In this document: positions 4,311-62,115 of the stretch, one piece after another | Layout: every line of letters starts with the position of its first letter | Position numbering within the stretch: position 1 is the stretch's first letter | Sequence record: NC_054910.1 | Length of the DNA: 64,000 bases | Strand: one strand, 5' to 3' | Source of the DNA: Escherichia phage EcNP1 | Position numbers and translations under genes: made by a program | Notes under the pieces: model-generated | What the model was told of the DNA's origin: nothing | Seen by the model: the letters and a program-made list of their open reading frames with translations, nothing else | The model's database searches: none

Positions 4311-4665
4311 ATTCGTTAAGAACTACATCAAAGATTGCTTCAAGATGCTCAGGTTTAGCTCTGTTACTCAGAATATGACGAATCCAAGTTTTAACCAGAA
4401 GCTTACGATTAACGCCGTTCCAGCAAGGATGGGTACCTAAATCACGTTGACGAAAATCATCATCTAATGCGATTTTAAAAGAAGAACCTTCTTTCGTGAT
4501 TGAAACCGTGATGCCATTTTCAAATCGCATATAAACGTAATTAGGAGTCATATACTGTTCAATTTCGCATACTGATCCATTTTGATGTTTCCAAAGGCAG
4601 ATAGTATCAATAGAACCTGCAATACCATTAGAAACATATTTACGTTCAAAGTTGATGTAGTTCAT
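4300..4665 (-). CDS. hypothetical protein (121 aa)
   Basis: ORF track; early promoter upstream near 4703-4731. Confidence 0.55.
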   Translation of the reverse strand: MNYINFERKYVSNGIAGSIDTICLWKHQNGSVCEIEQYMTPNYVYMRFENGITVSITKEGSSFKIALDDDFRQRDLGTHPCWNGVNRKLLVKTWIRHILSNRAKPEHLEAIFDVVLNEFDI

Positions 4666-4702
4666 TTTTATTCTCCGAGATGTTTAATTGCGGTACAGGT
4701 AT

Positions 4703-4731
4703 ATAATATCATATCCTGTACCAAAGTAAAC
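4703..4731 (-). promoter_or_regulatory. early promoter
   Basis: Minus strand GTTTAC, 17-nt spacer, TATTAT. Confidence 0.5.
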
Positions 4732-4733
4732 AA

Positions 4734-5066
4734 TTATTTTACTACTTTCCAGTGCTGCATGTCAAGTTTGCCAACTTTTTTCATCTTCTCAATTAAGCGT
4801 TCTGCACGTTGGCGAGCTGTAACATAATACCATTCACCTAATTCATTTTGTTCAATTTTTCCAACGATTACTGTATTCAATTCATAAATCCAACCGGTAA
4901 AGAAATTATGAACTTGAATTGTAAAGGTGAAATCTGTTCCCATACCTTCTGTTGTTTCTACTTCAATAATATCACCTTCAACTGCCATTAAGAACCACAT
5001 AGTTTCGTTATATTCACCATTGAAACATTTAGCTTTAACCGCAGCGTTCAGATTAATCGTTTTCAT
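4734..5066 (-). CDS. hypothetical protein (110 aa)
   Basis: ORF track; early promoter upstream near 5094-5123. Confidence 0.55.
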   Translation of the reverse strand: MKTINLNAAVKAKCFNGEYNETMWFLMAVEGDIIEVETTEGMGTDFTFTIQVHNFFTGWIYELNTVIVGKIEQNELGEWYYVTARQRAERLIEKMKKVGKLDMQHWKVVK

Positions 5067-5143
5067 TTTATTCTCCTTTGTTTGTGTAAGATAATATTAT
5101 CACAAAGGAACCATACTGTAAACAACTTTGTGCAATCTTTGGA

Positions 5144-5171
5144 AAATAAAAAAGGACTCCCGAAGGAGTCC
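5144..5171 (-). terminator. rho-independent terminator (UUCG-tetraloop hairpin)
   Basis: Minus RNA GGACUCC-UUCG-GGAGUCC followed by UUUUUUAUUUU; immediately after the 58-aa ORF stop. Confidence 0.7.
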
Positions 5172-5176
5172 TCAAC

Positions 5177-6807: not shown

Positions 6808-7388
6808 TATTCACCACAGAATTCGTTGATATTTTCCCAGTTTAACTTATTTAAGTTTTTCTTAGGAACATTAAACACTTCAATACCTGCATTTCGCAGA
6901 ATATCATCCCAGCCAGGTTTATTTTTATCGTATGTTTCGCAATAAACCAGCTTTTTAATACCAGATTGAGCTATCGCTTTTGCGCAATCTGGGCAAGGAG
7001 AAAGTGTTACATACATAATAGCACCTTCAATTGAAGAACCGTTTCGTGCAGCAAACAAAATCGCATTTAGTTCAGCATGAATTTCATTTTTAGACGACCA
7101 TTCAGAGTGCGCGCTACGGTGTTCTTTCGCCAAGACAAAACGATCAGTTGAACCAAACGATACACATTCAGGCTTATGACCTTGAATGATAGTATGTTTA
7201 GGCTTATTCAGCAACCAGCCTTGTTCAGCAGCATAATCACAGCAATTCACACCGCCTGCAGGCGAACCGTTATATCCAGTAGAAATAATACGTCCATTCT
7301 TTTCAATTACTGCTCCTACCTTCCAGGAGCAACATTTGGATTCTTGTGATACTAAATATGCAATTTGAAGTACTGTACTCGCTTTCAT
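6807..7388 (-). CDS. cd: dCMP deaminase
   Basis: 193 aa; HAELNA and SPCPDCAKAI zinc-binding deaminase motifs; T4 Cd length. Confidence 0.95.
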   Translation of the reverse strand: MKASTVLQIAYLVSQESKCCSWKVGAVIEKNGRIISTGYNGSPAGGVNCCDYAAEQGWLLNKPKHTIIQGHKPECVSFGSTDRFVLAKEHRSAHSEWSSKNEIHAELNAILFAARNGSSIEGAIMYVTLSPCPDCAKAIAQSGIKKLVYCETYDKNKPGWDDILRNAGIEVFNVPKKNLNKLNWENINEFCGE

Positions 7389-8477: not shown

Positions 8478-8508
8478 TTCAATTTCCTCATTTGTTTTTG
8501 GTAGAGCT

Positions 8509-8538
8509 ATAATATCACAACTCTACCGTAAAGTAAAC
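8509..8538 (-). promoter_or_regulatory. early promoter
   Basis: Minus strand GTTTAC, 18-nt spacer, TATTAT; upstream of the 175-aa ORF. Confidence 0.5.
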
Positions 8539-11801: not shown

Positions 11802-11830
11802 AAAGTCCTCATGTTGTGTCAGTAAGTCTA

Positions 11831-11859
11831 CTGTAACACAACATGAGGGACTTGTAAAC
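11831..11859 (-). promoter_or_regulatory. early-promoter-like element upstream of alc, inside a hairpin
   Basis: Minus strand GTTTAC, 18-nt spacer, TACAGT; the -10 sits in the loop of a 13-bp stem that contains the alc RBS. Confidence 0.4.
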
Positions 11860-20497: not shown

Positions 20498-20725
20498 TTA
20501 TTGTTCAATCAGTCCCATGTAAAATTCTGCGTCTTCAGCATCCATACCATCACAATATTCATTAGCCATAAAGCGGGTGAGGTCTTCAAGAGGACCTTCA
20601 ATAACAATTTGAATGCTCCAAAACTTAGAATCTTGCACACTTGTAATACTAAGTTCAGGATAACGATTACGAATAATTTCTTCAATATACTCAAAATCAA
20701 CGATGTCAATATCAACTTTAGCCAT
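20498..20725 (-). CDS. hypothetical acidic protein (75 aa)
   Basis: ORF track; first gene after the gene 32 terminator and an early promoter. Confidence 0.55.
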
Positions 20726-20768
20726 ATTATTTTCCTCTTTAATCGTCAGCAGTATTGCCGATAGTTGT

Positions 20769-20798
20769 ATAGTACCATGGAAGAACAGGGATGTAAAC
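20769..20798 (-). promoter_or_regulatory. early promoter downstream of the gene 32 terminator
   Basis: Minus strand A/T-rich upstream region, GTTTAC, 18-nt spacer, TGGTACTATAC. Confidence 0.5.
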
Positions 20799-20822
20799 TG
20801 TTTTGTGAAAAAATTTTTGAAA

Positions 20823-20848
20823 TAAAAAAGGGGACCTCTAGGGTCCCC
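20823..20848 (-). terminator. rho-independent terminator downstream of gene 32
   Basis: Minus RNA GGGGACCC-UAGA-GGUCCCC followed by UUUUUUAUUU. Confidence 0.7.
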
Positions 20849-24144: not shown

Positions 24145-27100
24145 ATGGCCGAGATTAAAAGAAAGTTCAGAGCAGAAGACGGTCTGGACGCAGGTGGCGA
24201 TAAAATAATCAACGTAGCTTTAGCTGATCGTACCGTAGGAACTGACGGTGTTAACGTTGATTACTTAATTCAAGAAAACACAGTTCAACAATATGATCCA
24301 ACTCGTGGATATTTAAAAGATTTTGTAATCATTTATAATAATCGTTTTTGGGCAGCAACGGATAATATTCCAAAACCTGCTGGAAGTTTTAATAGAATTC
24401 GTTGGAAAGCATTACGTACTGATGCCGTATATACAACCGTATCATCTGGACCATATCAATTAAAATCCGGAGAAGCAATTTCAGTAGATACATCAGTTGG
24501 TAATGACATTGAGTTTAATTTACCACCTTCTCCGCTTGATGGAGAAACCGTAATAATTCAAGATATTGGTGGAAAACCTGGTATAAATCAGGTTAAAATA
24601 AATTCTTCAAATCAGAGTATTGTTAATTTTAGAGGTGAACAAGTACGTTCAGTTCTAATGACTCATCCAAAGTCACAGATGATATTCATTTTTAATAATC
24701 GTTTGTGGCAAATGTATGTTGCTGATTATAGCAGAGAAGCTGCGATTGTTACTCCATCGACTGCATATCAAGCACAATCTAATGATTTTATCGTGCGTAG
24801 ATTTACTTCCGCTGCGCCGATTAATATTAAACTTCCGAGATTTGCTAATCATGGCGATATTATTAATTTCGTTGATTTAGATAAATTAAATCCACTTTAT
24901 CATACAATTGTCACGACATATGATGAAACAACTTCAGTACAAGAAGTTGGAACTCATTCTATTGAAGGCCGTACATCAATTGACGGTTTCTTGATGTTTG
25001 ATGATAATGAAAAATTATGGAGATTGTTTGACGGGGATAGTAAAGCACGTTTACGCATTATAACAACTAATTCTAATATTCGTCCAAATGAAGAAGTTAT
25101 GGTATTTGGTGCGAATAACGGAACAGCCCAAACAATTGAACTTCAACTTCCAACCGATATTTCCATTGGTGATACTGTTAAAATTTCCATGAATTACATG
25201 AGAAAAGGACAAACAGTTAAAATCAAAGCTGCCGGTGAAGATAAAATTGCTTCTTCAGTTCAATTGCTGCAATTCCCAAAACGTTCAGAATATCCGCCTG
25301 AAGCTGAATGGGTGACTGTCCAAGAATTAGTTTTCAATGGTGAAACTAATTATGTTCCGGTTTTACAACTTGCTTATATAGAAGATTCTGACGGAAAATA
25401 CTGGGTTGTACAACAAAACGTTCCAACGGTTGAAAGAGTCGATTCTTTAAATAATTCTACTAGAGCAAGATTAGGCGTAATTGCTTTAGCTACACAAGCT
25501 CAAGCTAACGTCGATTTAGAAAATTCTCCACAAAAAGAATTAGCAATTACACCAGAAACATTAGCTAACCGTACTGCTACAGAAACTCGTAGAGGTATCG
25601 CAAGAATAGCAACTACTGCTCAAGTGAATCAGAACACCACATTCTCTTTTGCTGATGATATTATCGTCACTCCTAAAAAGCTGAATGAAAGAACTGCTAC
25701 AGAAACTCGTAGAGGTGTTGCTGAAATTGCTACACAGCAAGAAACTAATGCAGGTACTGATGATACTACAATCATCACTCCTAAAAAGCTTCAAGCTCGT
25801 CAAGGTTCTGAATCATTATCTGGTATTGTAACCTTTGTATCTACTGCAGGAGCTACTCCAGCTTCTAGTCGTGAATTAAATGGTACAAATGTTTATAATA
25901 AAAACACTAATAATTTAGTTGTTTCGCCTAAAGCTTTGGATCAGTATAAAGCTACTCCAACGCAACAAGGTGCAGTAATTTTAGCAGTTGAAAGTGAAGT
26001 AATTGCTGGACAAAGCCAAGAAGGATGGGCAAATGCGGTTGTAACGCCAGAAACGTTACATAAAAAGACATCAACTGATGGAAGAATTGGTTTAATCGAA
26101 ATTGCTACGCAAAGTGAAGTTAATACAGGAACTGATTATACTCGTGCAGTCACTCCTAAAACTTTAAATGACCGTAAAGCAACTGAAAGTTTAAGTGGTA
26201 TAGCTGAAATTGCTACGCAAGTTGAATTCGACGCAGGCGTCGACGATACTCGTATCTCTACACCATTAAAAATTAAAACTAGATTTGATAGTACTGATCG
26301 TACTTCTGTTGTTGCTCTATCTGGATTAGTTGAATCAGGAACTCTCTGGGACCATTATACCCTTAATATTCTTGAAGCAAATGAGACACAACGTGGTACA
26401 CTTCGTGTAGCTACACAAGTTGAAGCTGCTGCAGGAACATTGGATAATGTTCTAATAACTCCTAAAAAGCTTTTAGGTACTAAATCTACCGAATCGCAGG
26501 AAGGTGTTATTAAAGTTGCAACTCGGTCTGAAACTGTAGCTGGAACGTCAGCAAATACTGCTGTATCTCCAAAAAATTTAAAATGGATTGTGCAGAGTGA
26601 ACCTACTTGGGCAGCTACTACTGCGATAAGAGGTTTTGTTAAAACCTCATCTGGTTCAATTACGTTCGTTGGTAATGATACAGCGGGTTCTACGCAGGAC
26701 TTAGAACTATATGAGAAAAATAACTATGCAGTATCACCATATGAATTAAACCGCGTATTAGCAAATTATTTGCCGTTAAAAGCAAAAGCTGTAGATAGTA
26801 ATTTATTAGATGGTTTAGATTCACTCCAGTTCATTCGTAGGGATATTGCGCAGACGGTTAATGGTTCACTAACCTTAACGCAACAAACGAATCTGAGTGC
26901 CCCTCTTGTATCATCTAGTACTGCTACGTTTGGTGGATCAGTTTCGGCAAATAGTACATTAACTATTTCTAATACTGGAACGGCAACTCGTCTGATTTTT
27001 GAGAAAGGACCTCAAACTGGGACGAACCCAGCTCAAACGATGACAGTCAGAGTGTGGGGAAATCAATTCAGCGGTGAATCGGACACAACACGTTCTACTG

Positions 27101-36456: not shown

Positions 36457-37092
36457 TCACAGTTCAGATGCTACGGTGATTACAGCTTCAATGTTTTCTG
36501 CCGAGCGTTTAATGTCAAGATACACATTACCATTTTTAGCGATTTTACATGACATTCCGATATCAGTAAATTTCTGAATATGATGTTCCATCATTTTGTA
36601 TCCAAAAATTCGCATATTTCCATTGTTGTTAATTTCAAAATTACGAATTCCGTGAGTGCGTTTTTCTAAAATAGCAAGATAGTTACTACGATAAGTTTCA
36701 ACCTTTTTAAGAACAAATCCATTTTCATCTAAAAGTTTTAGCATGAGGTCTTTATCTTCTTCCATATCGGAAGTAATCTCGCGAGCTTTACGAGTTGCTC
36801 GTTTTTTCAGCAGTTCCGGAGCATTTTCCTGCGCGTATAAAGTTGCTGCATTTGAAATAATATCCTGAGCTTCACCAGTAATGATTAATCCATCACCAGA
36901 TTTCTCCACCAGGCCTTTTTTAATCAATACCCCAATATTACTATTAACTACTGCATTACCTAAATCTGGATGCACCTCACGAACTTCTGCAGCTGTAATG
37001 AAATCTTTCTTAGCAATGGTAATTAAAATCGCAGCAGTTTTTTCATTCAGAACATCGTTAGAAGCTTTGATGATGTAAGTTACTTTAGACAT
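36457..37092 (-). CDS. motA: middle-transcription activator MotA
   Basis: 211 aa, MSKVTYIIKASNDVLNEKTAAILITIAKKDFITAAEVREV; matches T4 MotA. Confidence 0.95.
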   Translation of the reverse strand: MSKVTYIIKASNDVLNEKTAAILITIAKKDFITAAEVREVHPDLGNAVVNSNIGVLIKKGLVEKSGDGLIITGEAQDIISNAATLYAQENAPELLKKRATRKAREITSDMEEDKDLMLKLLDENGFVLKKVETYRSNYLAILEKRTHGIRNFEINNNGNMRIFGYKMMEHHIQKFTDIGMSCKIAKNGNVYLDIKRSAENIEAVITVASEL

Positions 37093-37133
37093 TTTCTAAT
37101 CTCCGTAATTCTGTATCAGTAGTTGATAGTTGT

Positions 37134-37163
37134 ATAGTACCACAGTATGCTTTGGTTGTAAAC
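37134..37163 (-). promoter_or_regulatory. early promoter for motA
   Basis: Minus strand AAAATTTTTTCACAAAACGGTTTACA, 18-nt spacer, TGGTACTATAC; same cassette as at 20769 and 40990. Confidence 0.55.
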
Positions 37164-37185
37164 CGTTTTGTGAAAAAATTTTAAA

Positions 37186-37213
37186 ATAAAAAAGGGAGAG
37201 CCGAGGCTCTCCC
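37186..37213 (-). terminator. rho-independent terminator upstream of the motA promoter
   Basis: Minus RNA GGGAGAGCC-UCG-GCUCUCCC followed by UUUUUUAUUUU. Confidence 0.7.
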
Positions 37214-40127: not shown

Positions 40128-40241
40128 TCACATAAATCCAAAGTAAGCGTTTAATACATCAATCATTAAAACGATTGGGAATATACTCAAAACTACTAGT
40201 ATTATAACTACATTCCATATAGCTTTAACAATCTTTTTCAT
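40128..40241 (-). CDS. mini hydrophobic peptide (37 aa)
   Basis: Read by eye: MKKIVKAIWNVVIILVVLSIFPIVLMIDVLNAYFGFM; GGAGGA RBS; first gene after an early promoter. Confidence 0.4.
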   Translation of the reverse strand: MKKIVKAIWNVVIILVVLSIFPIVLMIDVLNAYFGFM

Positions 40242-40269
40242 TTTCTGTTCCTCCGTAGTTGATAGAGTA

Positions 40270-40299
40270 ATAATACCACAGAGGAACAGTCTTGTAAAC
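40270..40299 (-). promoter_or_regulatory. early promoter in the ndd-denB mini-ORF cluster
   Basis: Minus strand A10 tract, GTTTAC, 17-nt spacer, TGGTATTATTA. Confidence 0.5.
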
Positions 40300-40310
40300 A
40301 ACTTTTTTTT

Positions 40311-40409
40311 TTAAAAATATTCGTAATAAATGTGAATACCAATCACCACTGCCGAAACTTGCGCAACCCACCACGCACAAGCAATAAGTACAGAATTCAA
40401 AATTTTCAT
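40311..40409 (-). CDS. mini hydrophobic peptide (32 aa)
   Basis: Read by eye: MKILNSVLIACAWWVAQVSAVVIGIHIYYEYF; ATGA overlap with upstream mini-ORF. Confidence 0.4.
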   Translation of the reverse strand: MKILNSVLIACAWWVAQVSAVVIGIHIYYEYF

Positions 40410-40761: not shown

Positions 40762-41063
40762 TAATCCGCTAAAAGATCGACAATTGCATCACGAAGACAC
40801 TTATTCGCAATACGTTTAAGAGCAATTTCAGTTTCTGGAGCATTTTGAATAATCATTGAATTCAATTCAGCCTCAGCAAACTGAAGTTCTTTAACTAATT
40901 CAGCTTTATATTTTCCTTGCCCTTTCTTAGCTTTTGCTCGTTTTAATTCAGCTGTAGTAAACATTTTATTCTCCAAATCCGTATCAGTTGATAGTTGTAT
41001 AGTACCACAGTCCTTGTGGTATGTAAACTGTTTTGTGAAAATTTTTAAATGGAAAGATACCAT
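40758..41063 (-). CDS. hypothetical protein (101 aa)
   Basis: ORF track; early promoter upstream. Confidence 0.5.
   Translation of the reverse strand: MVSFHLKIFTKQFTYHKDCGTIQLSTDTDLENKMFTTAELKRAKAKKGQGKYKAELVKELQFAEAELNSMIIQNAPETEIALKRIANKCLRDAIVDLLADY
40990..41019 (-). promoter_or_regulatory. early promoter
   Basis: Minus strand GTTTACA, spacer, TGGTACTATAC; copy of the 37134 cassette. Confidence 0.5.
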
Positions 41064-45481: not shown

Positions 45482-45512
45482 ATTATACCACATCCTTGTG
45501 GTAAAGTAAACT
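45482..45512 (-). promoter_or_regulatory. early promoter upstream of rIIA.1/rIIA
   Basis: Minus strand GTTTAC, 17-nt spacer, TGGTATAAT (perfect extended -10). Confidence 0.6.
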
Positions 45513-49146: not shown

Positions 49147-49231
49147 GTTGTTTTCTGTATCAGTAGTTGATATTGATATAGTACCATAATCAACTACTGA
49201 TGTATATAGTTTTATGAAAAAATTTTAAACT

Positions 49232-49720
49232 TTATGCATAGAGAGCTTTGCTATAGTGTTTAATCCAACTTTCAGGAATGACTTTGTATGTTCCTAAAAA
49301 TACCACGTTATACAACTTAACGCCATCTTCTACCCACTGATCGGTAATGTATGCGCACATAGCACGAGTATAAACAGCCGCTCCATCATCTTTGATAAAT
49401 TTAAATTCACAAGGAGAAACGAACTTAATAGCCTGACCGAGTTTCCACTTAAAATCTACACCTACATGTGAAGTATCAATCGTTTCAATTCCTTTAGCAG
49501 GAACAGCTTTCAAAAACGCAGATTCAAGAAATTTCGCACGAACATAGCCAAACTGAGGTTTAGACTTTCCATCTTTAGGAATGATACGCACTTTTACTTC
49601 AGAATCTTCATCTTTAACGCCATGTTTAAGCTGAATGCTTACAATTTCGACCAATTTTCCTGCTGCTTTAGAACGGGATTTATCAGATACACGAGCAATT
49701 TCACCAATATTAATAATCAT
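49232..49720 (-). CDS. MotB-like protein (162 aa)
   Basis: Size and position match T4 MotB; C-terminal ITDQWVEDGVKLYNVV motif shared with the next ORF. Confidence 0.55.
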   Translation of the reverse strand: MIINIGEIARVSDKSRSKAAGKLVEIVSIQLKHGVKDEDSEVKVRIIPKDGKSKPQFGYVRAKFLESAFLKAVPAKGIETIDTSHVGVDFKWKLGQAIKFVSPCEFKFIKDDGAAVYTRAMCAYITDQWVEDGVKLYNVVFLGTYKVIPESWIKHYSKALYA

Positions 49721-49765
49721 AGTTATCTCTCACTTGTTAAAAAGATTTTATACTCCACGGGACCA

Positions 49766-49794
49766 TTATACTCTGGTCCCAAGAGTTTGTAAAC
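49766..49794 (-). promoter_or_regulatory. early promoter upstream of the MotB-like gene
   Basis: Minus strand GTTTAC, 17-nt spacer, TATAAT, flanked by GGGACC/GGTCCC inverted repeat. Confidence 0.55.
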
Positions 49795-50338: not shown

Positions 50339-50878
50339 TTATCTCATTTCAATAAAATCTACGAGTTCAGCATGGGATTTGCGGAACATTACTTGGTGTC
50401 CACCAATGACAACTTGATCATCTGGCACTTCGTATACAGCAAGATAAAATCCTTTAGAAGATAATTCTTCACGCTCTTCTCGTGTGAACCATCTCATCAT
50501 ATCATATTCGCTAGCGAAAGCAAAATGATAAAGAGCTATAAACCATCCTGGAATATGATATTCTACTCCAACATAATCTTTCTTGAACTTAGTATTAATT
50601 ACTATATTAGCGTTTTTAACTAATAGTTTATCTTCGTGTGGTAAAGGAATTCTTTTATTATTATCGCTATGATGCATAAAATTAGGTCTGTCATAACCTA
50701 CGTGTAATAGCCACTCTTCGCTCCATGAATCTATTATACTCCTGTACGGCGTTATTTGAACACAAAGATTTCGACGTATTGTTATAGCATCTTCATAATC
50801 AAGAATACTAAACGATGACTCAACACGATAAATTTTCATTTTATTATCCTCAGTAGCTATGGTGTTATAATACCACAA
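50339..50878 (-). CDS. hypothetical protein (179 aa)
   Basis: ORF track; directly upstream of dexA. Confidence 0.55.
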   Translation of the reverse strand: MWYYNTIATEDNKMKIYRVESSFSILDYEDAITIRRNLCVQITPYRSIIDSWSEEWLLHVGYDRPNFMHHSDNNKRIPLPHEDKLLVKNANIVINTKFKKDYVGVEYHIPGWFIALYHFAFASEYDMMRWFTREEREELSSKGFYLAVYEVPDDQVVIGGHQVMFRKSHAELVDFIEMR

Positions 50879-50902
50879 CTAACCGAGGAAGTAAACAACT
50901 TT

Positions 50903-53716: not shown

Positions 53717-54463
53717 TTATCCTCGGATAAGTTTAAAAATTGAACAATTTAGCGGGTATCCTCTTTTCAGTTTAAGTTTATCAATAAAAGACAAATTTTG
53801 ATACCGCTCTACACCTTGAATAATTTTATCACACATATCATATTGCATTTCTGCTTCTGACAATTTTTTCACAGTTTTCCAATCCGAGCCTTTAAGAAGA
53901 ACGTTTAGTTTAACAACTTCAGCGCCTTCTGCTATACGAGAACCATCAATACGAGCTTTAAGTGCTATAATCGTTAGCTTAACGTCAGAAGTTTGTTTTG
54001 ATTTAGAAAGCTGAGAAATATGCTCAATTCGGTTTTCACGTTTTTTCTGTATAGCTTTAATTTGATTATAAGTCTTTTTGATTTTAGCCCATTTCTTTTC
54101 ATCTAAATTTAGTTTATGAACTTTTTTCGCAGATGAACGACCAATTCGCAAAGCAAATAAATCACGCTTTTCAATCAACTCTTCTAAAGTATAATCAGAA
54201 CGAAATGTATTATACTTTTTCTTTACTGCAATAACATTCCCTTTAATGTATCCAACGTTATTATCAAAACGTTCTAACGATAATTTCTCTCCTTCAATAC
54301 GATTATCAAAAGGTTCTCCTGAGTAAGCGCAAACTTTCTGATCTAAAATGTTCTTAATGTAATTGAAGTCTAAGTTAAAATCTTTAGAACGTCTTTTAGC
54401 TGATGCCTGAGTGTGCTCTAAACGACGTGTAATTTTACGAATTTGATTTTTAGACAGTTTCAT
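53717..54463 (-). CDS. srd: Srd-like protein (tentative)
   Basis: 248 aa, very basic; position between dda.1 and modA and size fit T4 Srd; sequence not independently recalled. Confidence 0.55.
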   Translation of the reverse strand: MKLSKNQIRKITRRLEHTQASAKRRSKDFNLDFNYIKNILDQKVCAYSGEPFDNRIEGEKLSLERFDNNVGYIKGNVIAVKKKYNTFRSDYTLEELIEKRDLFALRIGRSSAKKVHKLNLDEKKWAKIKKTYNQIKAIQKKRENRIEHISQLSKSKQTSDVKLTIIALKARIDGSRIAEGAEVVKLNVLLKGSDWKTVKKLSEAEMQYDMCDKIIQGVERYQNLSFIDKLKLKRGYPLNCSIFKLIRG

Positions 54464-55181: not shown

Positions 55182-55801
55182 TCAACTACCTCAATATCAT
55201 ACACTTTAAATGTTCCAAATGAATCGTGTAATTTTTCTTTTGAAATAGAAGTTATTTTATACTTTCCAATTGGAATCATCCATTCTTGTTCACGTACAAT
55301 CATCATTAAGTTATCAGTACGTTCTGAATCTAATCCATCAGTATCTTCATATGTATACTTAAACTCAGTATTAGGAGAAGAAAGTATAATATCGCTGATA
55401 TGGTCAGAGTAATTAAAAGCTTTATCAGTTTTTAAGCGAAATATTATTTCAGTGGAATATTCAACATAAGAAAAACCGCATGCTGTGTGCAAACTAGTAG
55501 TAAATGAATCTACTCTGTTCGTTGAAAACACTTCTCCAACTTGTAAATCTTTAATGAGTTCTTTTGTCGATTTTGATATACCACGATATAACTGATAAGG
55601 TGATTCAGTTAAATGCTTTTTAACGATTTTATTCAACTGCCGATGAAGAGCTTCATTCTTTTTGGCTTCCATACATTGCCAAAGAACTGACTGTTCAAAG
55701 TCAGTAAATTTTTCACAGACCTTTTTATACATATCATATTGAAAATCAACACTTTCAGCTTTTATAGATAACTGTTCAACATCTGCAAGATTAATAATCA
55801 T
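55178..55801 (-). CDS. modB: ADP-ribosyltransferase ModB
   Basis: Track ORF trimmed to MIINLADVEQ (207 aa); YRG, STN and EQEWMIP motifs parallel ModA. Confidence 0.85.
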   Translation of the reverse strand: MIINLADVEQLSIKAESVDFQYDMYKKVCEKFTDFEQSVLWQCMEAKKNEALHRQLNKIVKKHLTESPYQLYRGISKSTKELIKDLQVGEVFSTNRVDSFTTSLHTACGFSYVEYSTEIIFRLKTDKAFNYSDHISDIILSSPNTEFKYTYEDTDGLDSERTDNLMMIVREQEWMIPIGKYKITSISKEKLHDSFGTFKVYDIEVVE

Positions 55802-55868
55802 GATAGCCTCCATATACTTCAGAAGCTATCATATCATTGTTAGGAAGGAAAGTAAACAACTTTTTGAA

Positions 55869-61566: not shown

Positions 61567-61595
61567 TTTCTTTTCTCCGCGATTAGCTGATAGAA

Positions 61596-61627
61596 TTACT
61601 ATAACACAACTCTATCAGCTTGTAAAC
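61596..61627 (-). promoter_or_regulatory. early promoter
   Basis: Minus strand GTTTACAAGCTGA..., TATAGT -10, flanked by a 10-bp inverted repeat AGCTGATAGA/TCTATCAGCT. Confidence 0.5.
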
Positions 61628-61650
61628 TACTATTTTACTAGCATCAATAA

Positions 61651-61914
61651 CTATTTCTCTAACTTGGCGATTTTACGAAAGTATCTTTTGCATTGACGAA
61701 TCTGTCGCTTCGTAGGGCGCACAGCAAACTTAATAAATTCCACTCGACCAAATGGAGGGCTTTCTTCTGCTGGAATATCTAATACTAATTCCCACGTATC
61801 TGCGATAAGTGCTTTGAATTGAGTATTTTTCCTGACGTTATACGGAGTAGGTTTAAATAAAACGATATGCATATTATCCTCGGCAATCCACTTCGCATAC
61901 TTTCTTGTCATCAA
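61651..61914 (-). CDS. hypothetical protein (87 aa; internal ATG at about 61872 possible)
   Basis: ORF track; 5' end overlaps dmd by 41 nt, so the true start may be the internal MHIVLF. Confidence 0.45.
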   Translation of the reverse strand: MMTRKYAKWIAEDNMHIVLFKPTPYNVRKNTQFKALIADTWELVLDIPAEESPPFGRVEFIKFAVRPTKRQIRQCKRYFRKIAKLEK

Positions 61915-62056: not shown

Positions 62057-62087
62057 AACAATCTCCTCATTTAACCAACAAGACTAC

Positions 62088-62115
62088 TATACCATAGTCT
62101 TGTCAGCTTGTAAAC
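62088..62115 (-). promoter_or_regulatory. early promoter for dmd
   Basis: Minus strand GTTTACAAGCTGA..., TATAGT -10, with 9-bp inverted repeat ACAAGACTA/TAGTCTTGT. Confidence 0.5.

Follow-up and report, generated by a model that had tools for sequence, protein, structure and literature searches.

The stretch analysed here, 64,000 nucleotides (nt) of Escherichia phage EcNP1 (sequence record NC_054910.1; referred to below as the window), is a segment of a Tequatrovirus (T4-like) genome with a G+C content of approximately 35%. Over the 8 kb compared (4.2-12.2 kb) its identity to vB_EcoM_Nami is 99.9%, and at 60.5-63.5 kb several Escherichia and Shigella phages match it at approximately 97%. The prereplicative and early genes of the window are encoded on the minus strand. 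One of their promoters, P61598, lies within the region running from gene 41 to dmd, tifA (61.4) and sp, and reads on the minus strand GTTTAC-aAGCTGATAGAgttgtgt-TATAGT-aatTCTATCAGCT, followed by a Shine-Dalgarno (SD) sequence and an ATG. Two complementary arms bracket its -10 element, and the dyads of this kind that recur at early promoters of the window are the subject of this work. A scan of the whole 64 kb against Rfam gave no family at the gathering score.

The early promoter pattern GTTTAC-N16-19-TANNNT occurs 21 times in the window against 3.6 expected, and 20 of these matches are on the minus strand. The sole plus-strand match (GTTTAC...TAATAT at 25049-25079) has a 19-nt spacer, lies within the late tail-fibre region and is probably due to chance. 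Upstream of the early promoters there are A-rich flanks, and the stop codon of the preceding gene overlaps the -35 element (TAGTTTAC). An SD sequence and an ATG follow at all 20 promoters of the window, with the ATG 19-38 nt past the start site, which here and throughout was inferred from canonical sigma-70 spacing (about 7 nt past the -10 element).

The preliminary description of this sequence had proposed that inverted repeats flank the -10 hexamer of many of these promoters, with arms that differ in sequence and keep the same geometry. All six arm pairs that it named were found, with small shifts in position: AGCTGATAGA starts at 61585 and not at 61586, GGTAGAG/CTCTACC occupies 8500-8527, and the pair upstream of cef (CAGTAGTTGAT/ATCAACTACTG) exists at 49161-49199 rather than 49147-49190, with a degenerate -35 element (TATACA) in place of GTTTAC. 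For the 20 exact GTTTAC-N17/18-TAnnnT sites of the window, we determined the longest perfect inverted repeat having its 5' arm in the 18-nt spacer and its 3' arm in the 24 nt that follow the -10 element. Seven of the 20 promoters had a repeat of at least 7 bp, compared with 0.33 expected from shuffled sequences and 0.69 from permutations that re-paired spacers with other downstream segments and so preserved position-specific conservation. For repeats of at least 8 bp the count was six (0.07 and 0.34 expected). None of 2,000 shuffles and none of 20,000 permutations matched the observed counts, and the proportion of random window positions reaching these lengths was approximately 2.7% (at least 7 bp) and 0.7% (at least 8 bp). 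The recurrence noted in the preliminary description is real and far beyond chance, and the dyads are under selection for pairing.

The same test was applied to positions 1-74 kb of bacteriophage T4, whose promoters were re-derived by pattern because its GenBank and RefSeq entries have none annotated. Here, 9 of 26 promoters had repeats of 7 bp or more, against 0.5 expected. Within 24-74 kb of T4, a region with no counterpart in the window, they occur at 8 of 17 promoters, including those of regB, denV, ipI, ipII, ipIII, mobD.2 and trna.4; the dyads at the three ip promoters are 10, 14 and 8 bp long, respectively. The window also contains stronger cases that the preliminary description did not name, namely alc (13 bp, -10 element at 11830), 30.8 (5094), a 37-amino acid (aa) open reading frame (ORF; 40270), motB.2 (50867) and modB (55828).

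The notion of one common geometry holds in part. Placement around the -10 element recurs, but there are at least three arrangements, with the 3' arm directly after the -10 element, with the 3' arm over the SD sequence, or with the hairpin wholly in the spacer. In the first (class A), the start of the 3' arm falls anywhere from 4 nt before to 3 nt after the final base of the -10 element; 17-32 nt separate the end of the hairpin from the AUG, and the SD sequence is left free. Class A comprises the promoters of dmd, P61598, the promoter downstream of cd.3, and those of 30.7, motB and cef, and every example in the preliminary description belongs to it. In class B, the 3' arm lies over the SD sequence; its members are alc, 30.8, modB, motB.2 and the 37-aa ORF in the window, and, in T4, regB, denV and a third promoter, which lies in the nrdC region (-10 element at 53914). 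As the promoter fills the intergenic space, the spacer and the segment from +1 to the SD sequence are the sole free positions for arms, so that the bracketing follows from these limits and requires no role for the -10 element itself. The positions of all these features are given in Table 1.

Table 1. Dyads, spacer-internal hairpins and associated features of the window, with arms and folding values (minimum free energy, MFE, in kcal/mol, of the region folded as RNA)
Feature	Class	Positions	Strand	-35 element	-10 element	5' arm	3' arm	Folding and remarks
P61598 early promoter	A	61585..61627	-	GTTTAC 61622-61627	TATAGT 61598-61603	AGCTGATAGAGTTG 61607-61620	TAATTCTATCAGCT 61585-61598	MFE -18.0 sense, -12.6 antisense; z -3.5
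dmd-tifA (61.4) early promoter	A	62073..62115	-	62110-62115	TATAGT 62086-62091	AGCTGACAAGACTAT 62094-62108	GTAGTCTTGTTGGTT 62073-62087	MFE -18.9 sense, -10.1 antisense; z -4.2
cd.3-downstream early promoter	A	8500..8538	-	8533-8538	8509-8514	GGTAGAGTTGTG 8516-8527	TATAGCTCTACC 8500-8511	orthologue of T4 Pe133295
Gene 30.7 early promoter	A	4692..4731	-		4703-4708	GGTACAGG 4715-4722	CCTGTACC 4692-4699	z -4.6
motB early promoter	A	49752..49794	-		49765-49770	ACTCTTGGGACCA 49774-49786	TGGTCCCGTGGAGT 49752-49765	MFE -19.7; z -4.1
Weaker promoter upstream of cef	A	49161..49206	-	TATACA	TACTAT 49178-49183	CAGTAGTTGAT 49189-49199	ATCAACTACTG 49161-49171	MFE -20.2; 3' arm is the conserved leader motif
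alc early promoter	B	11803..11859	-		TACAGT 11830-11835	CCTCATGTTGTGT 11836-11848	ACACAACATGAGG 11807-11819, covering SD	MFE -28.0; z -7.2
Gene 30.8 early promoter	B	5074..5123	-		5094-5099	TCCTTTGT 5102-5109	ACAAAGGA 5074-5081, over SD	
37-aa ORF early promoter, ndd region	B	40245..40299	-			CTGTTCCTCTGTGGT 40275-40289	ACTACGGAGGAACAG 40245-40259, over SD	MFE -23.2 sense, -14.9 antisense; z -5.3
motB.2 early promoter	B	50847..50896	-			TCCTCGGTTAGTTGTGGT 50872-50889	ACCATAGCTACTGAGGA 50847-50863, over SD	MFE -23.7 sense, -15.8 antisense; z -6.5
modB early promoter	B	55793..55857	-			55822-55838, takes in -10 box	55793-55810, over SD sequence and AUG	z -2.9
Spacer-internal hairpin, rIIA.1 promoter (45482)		45488..45505	-			TACCACA	TGTGGTA	7 bp, loop AGGA; 3' arm is extended -10 (TGTGGTA)
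Spacer-internal hairpin, promoter 40999		41005-41023	-					same design as rIIA.1
Promoter cassette copy without dyad		20720..20830	-					conserved: UP element, -35, TGTGGTACTAT, leader ACAACTATCAAC; spacer variable
Other promoter cassette copies		~37085-37195; ~40950-41060	-					
84-aa ORF downstream of P61598		61312-61566	-					absent from T4

At the dyad promoters the 5' arm occupies the spacer between the -35 and -10 elements, or the -10 box itself (modB), and the 3' arm falls within the first 5-25 transcribed bases. The 5' arm is thus upstream of any sigma-70 start, so that the promoter's own transcript holds at most the 3' arm and only RNA that reads through from further upstream can fold. 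On this geometry, a 5' hairpin on the promoter's own transcript, one of the structures proposed in the preliminary description, was rejected. In an unbiased scan, stems with at least 7 Watson-Crick pairs extend across the inferred start site at 20 of the 46 promoters, compared with 19% of random positions, whereas stems lying wholly within +1 to +60 are found at 2 of the 46, compared with 17.6% at random positions. Within sense-strand stems of this length, defined without favouring either transition mismatch, G.T mismatches outnumber A.C mismatches 22 to 2, against 852:628 (58:42) in random 60-nt windows of the same strand. When the 46 promoter regions were folded as RNA, the mean MFE was -12.8 kcal/mol for the sense and -9.7 kcal/mol for the antisense strand (Wilcoxon P = 2e-5), a gap that is only -1.25 in random windows, and z was below -2 at 24 of the 46. 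The wobble bias and the greater stability of the sense strand argue for a sense-strand RNA helix and disfavour a cruciform, another of the structures first proposed, because in a cruciform both strands must pair.

The two classes differ in their predicted effect on the SD sequence, whose accessibility was computed as the unpaired probability in the promoter's own transcript and in the read-through context. In class B, the predicted value falls from 0.40 to 0.01 at alc, from 0.79 to 0.03 at 30.8, from 0.71 to 0.00 at the 37-aa ORF (40270), from 0.55 to 0.00 at motB.2 and from 0.62 to 0.10 at modB, and occlusion is therefore predicted in read-through RNA only. For the class A promoters of dmd, P61598, cd.3-downstream, 30.7 and motB, the predicted accessibility is unchanged between the two RNAs. 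About 30 nt upstream of P30.8 there is also a canonical intrinsic terminator on the minus strand (5152-5173) with a UUCG tetraloop (GAGGACTCC-TTCG-GGAGTCCTT and then a run of T), and this terminator design is kept in Mosigvirus and JS98.

Comparison of orthologous promoters, which the preliminary description had put forward as a check, revealed compensatory and wobble changes at several sites, in agreement with its view that selection acts on pairing rather than on a shared binding motif, the arms differing in sequence between promoters. At the cd.3-downstream promoter, the arms GGTAGAG/CTCTACC of T4 and the window correspond to GGTGGAG/CTCTACC in Mosigvirus, with a G.U pair, and to GGTAGGA/TCCTACC in JS98, which amounts to two compensatory exchanges. 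An alignment of 24 sequences of this promoter, gathered by their conserved flanks only, has an 11-bp stem in which 89.9% of cells are paired (32-72% when the partners are slid) and 11 cells are changed on both sides, a number reached by none of 500 shuffles; both are cell-based measures, which shared ancestry inflates. Exchanges between AU and GC and between GC and AU occur at three pairs of this stem. One pair of the dmd promoter is G-C in T4, G.U in the window and A-U in an IMG/VR contig, and in the T4 mobD.2 paralogue of this promoter a C-to-T change is offset by a G-to-A change. At the alc promoter, A-U and G-C pairs of the window are both G.U in T4, and in JS98 SD occlusion is preserved by shifted arms (CTCCTCAT/ATGAGGAG). 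Two Mosigvirus phages have a 14-bp SD-occluding stem that is UUCUCCAGUAGUUG/CAACUACUGGAGAA in one and ...CCGG.../...CCGG... in the other, an A-U to G-C exchange. The arms of the 30.7 promoter are unchanged from T4 through Mosigvirus to JS98 and its loop varies, and the motB dyad is identical in T4 (at 7186). The P61598 cassette itself is invariant in the GenBank phage records examined and offers no variation from which covariation could be read. An IMG/VR search with the Dmd protein returned five near-identical loci and no divergent promoter variants, and an IMG/VR pattern search for relatives of P61598 found nothing.

The cassettes that carry the dyads coincide with joints between otherwise different sequences. 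The P61598 cassette of about 65 bp is identical in five phages that differ in the upstream flank and in the downstream gene. The unit that it forms with the 84-aa ORF lies between tifA (61.4) and sp, is absent from T4 and occurs in 73 phage records; in SA20RB and IsaacDaniel the promoter cassette stands ahead of a different ORF. In Salmonella phage Manna, compared with window positions 4650-5150, gene 30.8 is missing and the upstream half of P30.8 is joined to the SD sequence and ATG of 30.7; the gene was lost by recombination between the neighbouring P30.8 and P30.7 cassettes.

The basic observation is already in the literature, and the dyads are the T-even version of a known kind of element. 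Arbiol et al. (2010; PMC2839356) described in phages RB49 and phi1 the promoter-early stem-loop (PeSL), an early promoter joined to a stem-loop, including stem-loops that overlap the -10 box, and reported promoter activity, a strong drop of downstream lacZ for one stem-loop and recombination between cassettes. Comeau et al. (2014; PMC4122927) extended the PeSLs to PST/T4 and nt-1/KVP40. Like PeSLs, the dyads of the window belong to intergenic cassettes in which an A/T-rich stretch precedes an early promoter of the sigma-70 type, a stem-loop lies in or next to this promoter, and an SD sequence and ATG follow; both kinds of cassette are repeated through the early and hyperplastic regions, at sites of indels and gene swaps. 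The RB49/phi1 stems differ in being G/C-rich (GGGG...CCCC) and placed on TTGACA, whereas those of the window are AT-rich, site-specific and placed on GTTTAC. With an early promoter, an overlapping stem-loop, an SD sequence with ATG and an association with gene exchange, the window dyads share the features of PeSLs and have no sequence homology to the RB49/phi1 elements, so that their membership is functional and architectural and not one of descent. The authors of the PeSL studies themselves termed the T-even elements analogues, not homologues (PMC2839356). In PST/T4, stem-loops were placed 'just upstream of the promoter' (AGNA-loop-TCNT; PMC4122927); these probably correspond to UUCG terminators such as that at 5152-5173 and not to the dyads bracketing the -10 element. 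The two papers do not treat translation, SD occlusion, strand bias or covariation (PMC2839356, PMC4122927); relative to them, the early promoters with an SD-occluding hairpin and the evidence that the hairpins act in read-through RNA appear to be new.

Two further T-even systems are comparable. AT-rich stem-loops of variable size at T4 early promoters, flanking highly variable genes, were described by Repoila et al. (1994) for the IP loci and, in the account given of that work in PMC2839356, only for these loci and as recombination linkers; dyads were found here at the ipI, ipII and ipIII promoters of T4. The T4 genes e, soc, 49, 25/26, I-TevI/II/III and segB and Aeh1 mobE use a translational switch consisting of a hairpin with an internal promoter, and all known cases concern late genes, with late (gp55) or middle promoters (PMC2988022). 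Class B shares with this switch an internal promoter whose transcript has no 5' arm and would be translatable, as well as the SD sequestration predicted here. In contrast to the late-gene switch, the internal promoter in the window is a sigma-70 early promoter whose spacer forms the 5' arm, and the class A hairpins lie off the SD sequence.

Our preferred reading, to which we give a probability of roughly 0.6, is that the dyads are T-even versions of PeSL cassettes and act as sense-strand RNA hairpins that form only in read-through RNA. RNA started at the promoter itself would have no 5' arm and stay open, RNA started upstream would contain both arms and fold, and the hairpin would mark each transcript by its start point. 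In class B, about one third of the promoters, translation of the downstream gene would be confined to the transcript of its own promoter, since the 3' arm is the SD region, which would make this class the early-promoter counterpart of the switch of e, soc, 49 and I-TevI. Class A would serve as an intercistronic insulator on read-through RNA with the SD sequence left free; it may attenuate transcription or cause polymerase pausing, or may block 3' exonucleases or set a processing boundary beside the AU-rich leader, which is sensitive to RegB and RNase E. The conserved cassettes double as recombination joints for gene shuffling.

A broader proposal, which we offer tentatively and regard as possible rather than probable, is a genome-wide 'promoter-of-origin' gate in which early cistrons are translated (class B) or kept or processed (class A) according to where their RNA began. 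If so, the toxic host-takeover proteins of alc, modB, regB, motB.2 and denV would be made only in the 2-3 min during which their own promoters fire, despite persisting read-through RNA, and the hairpin switch so far described for late genes only would extend to the early class. The gate would also account in part for the extra conservation, so far unexplained, of the spacers of T4 early promoters. More remotely, the arms might permit the -10 loop to invert now and then, as in the former T4 sequence of Pe133295. T4 is a reference for timed phage gene expression, in which the separation of immediate-early from read-through ('delayed-early') expression, the conservation of early promoters beyond polymerase contacts and the role of PeSL stem-loops are unsettled. 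Confirmation would bring the architecture of promoters, the control of translation and the shuffling of gene modules together in one 60-bp cassette, and would be of use in the annotation of T4-like genomes and the engineering of therapeutic phages.

Several points weigh against the read-through hairpin, in addition to the inflation of the cell-based measures by shared ancestry. About half of the promoters, among them those of motA, asiA, srd, sp, rnh and frd.3, have no significant hairpin, which makes the feature optional. The window and T4 sets share orthologues and pooled counts are inflated, the effect being kept in the non-overlapping sets of 20 and 17 promoters. In the 24-sequence cd.3-downstream alignment, a measure that counts pairs was not significant (reached by 246 of 500 shuffles), and the stems of two of the sequences are weak or of another kind. 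In some orthologues the structure is gone or has given way to another, as at the Mosigvirus alc promoter, where a spacer-internal hairpin stands in its place, and templated correction of quasi-palindromes could mimic compensatory change. The positions of the start sites are assumed, all effects on translation, termination and RNA decay are predictions, and with no U-tract at the class A hairpins classical intrinsic termination is unlikely for them.

The strongest competitor retains the original interpretation of the PeSLs, according to which the dyads are terminators or attenuators of the upstream gene that overlap the next promoter and provide transcriptional insulation. The PeSL211/210 stem-loop of RB49/phi1 cut downstream lacZ as much as rrnB T1 (PMC2839356), in an assay that cannot tell termination apart from effects on RNA processing or on translation. 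In OL960581.1, the authors of the record list the P61598 dyad as a rho-independent terminator, and the sense-strand G.U bias would fit a nascent-RNA hairpin. Like intrinsic terminators, the dyads are intergenic sense-strand RNA hairpins, but they have AT-rich stems and large loops (6-16 nt) that contain the -10 box, unlike the G/C-rich stems of RB49, and they have no U-tract. A canonical intrinsic terminator was rejected for them: the 8 nt past the stem contain 0-3 T, and the terminator scan called none. At P30.8, the UUCG terminator and the SD-occluding hairpin occur together, which suggests a separate job for the hairpin. Taken together, we consider termination an unlikely explanation.

An action of the dyads as DNA is improbable. 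A cruciform or single-strand hairpin would tune promoter melting or serve as bait for nucleases or recombination proteins such as endonuclease VII, resulting in cassette shuffling or a promoter switch. The coincidence of the cassettes with mosaic joints and indels favours this explanation, as do the mini-circles and the crossovers in or near the stem-loop documented in the PeSL papers. It is also favoured by the T4 records NC_000866/AF158101, in which positions 133300-133313 carry the note 'inverted complement of previously reported sequence; corrects the early promoter Pe133295'. These 14 nt coincide exactly with the loop TTGTGATATTATAG, which separates GGTAGAG from CTCTACC and contains the -10 element (8502-8515 in the window orthologue); this indicates that an earlier clone or sequence had the loop flipped between the inverted repeats. 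The flipped loop may have arisen in cloning, through selection against a toxic promoter, or may reflect a genuine inversion. A cruciform needs pairing of both strands, yet the mismatches are 22 G.T and 2 A.C where 58:42 is expected, the sense strand folds about 3 kcal/mol better, and natural variants pass through G.U intermediates. In addition, AT-rich stems of 7-14 bp with large loops extrude poorly, and homology over the whole cassette of about 65 bp is enough for recombination without any structure.

It is more doubtful still that the dyads are functionless by-products of templated quasi-palindrome correction, cassette duplication or base composition. Such an origin would agree with the half of early promoters that have no dyad, template switching can change both arms in concert, and cassette duplication is evident. 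It is contradicted by the 10- to 20-fold enrichment over shuffles, non-cognate pairs of spacer and leader and random positions, by the depletion of hairpins within the transcribed leader and their enrichment across the start site, and by the 30.7 arms, which stay the same from T4 to JS98 although their loop does not; a strand-specific wobble bias is also not expected from templated correction. That the dyads are operators for a dimeric regulator of early promoters can be practically discounted: a dyad centred on a core promoter element is a classic operator layout and the shut-off of T4 early promoters is incompletely understood (PMC3014915), but the arms differ at every promoter in sequence, in length (6-15 bp) and in the start of the 3' arm (-4 to +17 nt from the end of the -10 element), and their changes preserve pairing, not sequence.

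Several observations concern genes next to the dyads. The identity of the dmd-tifA promoter is given in PMC9391042, where T4 61.4 was renamed tifA, an inhibitor of ToxN. Directly after dmd, an ORF on the minus strand (61640-61873) that is homologous to T4 61.4 lacks a separate promoter and overlaps with the stop codon of dmd, and this arrangement agrees with the published dmd-tifA operon under the promoter at 62086 (PMC9391042). The 84-aa ORF is labelled 'goF/ComC-alpha mRNA metabolism modulator' in some records, and a Pfam search of this ORF and of a 175-aa ORF, which lie downstream of two dyads, gave no match.

Hairpins located wholly in the spacer also recur. The 7-bp design of the rIIA.1 promoter is found at T4 2429 and 50944, and the Mosigvirus alc promoter has a similar one, CACCA-AGGA-TGGTG. 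Near-identical promoter cassettes exist, as previously described, at 20769, 37134 and 40999 (40990 in the preliminary description), with conserved flanks and only the 12-14-nt spacer variable. They belong to a family represented at 20720-20830, 37085-37195, 40950-41060, 49150-49260 and 40220-40330, with the organization AAAATTTTTTCACAAAAC-GTTTACA...TGTGGTACTAT-ACAACTATCAACTACTGA, in which the spacer is hypervariable and ACAACTATCAACTACTGA is the conserved transcribed leader. At the cef promoter, the spacer has become the complement of this leader.

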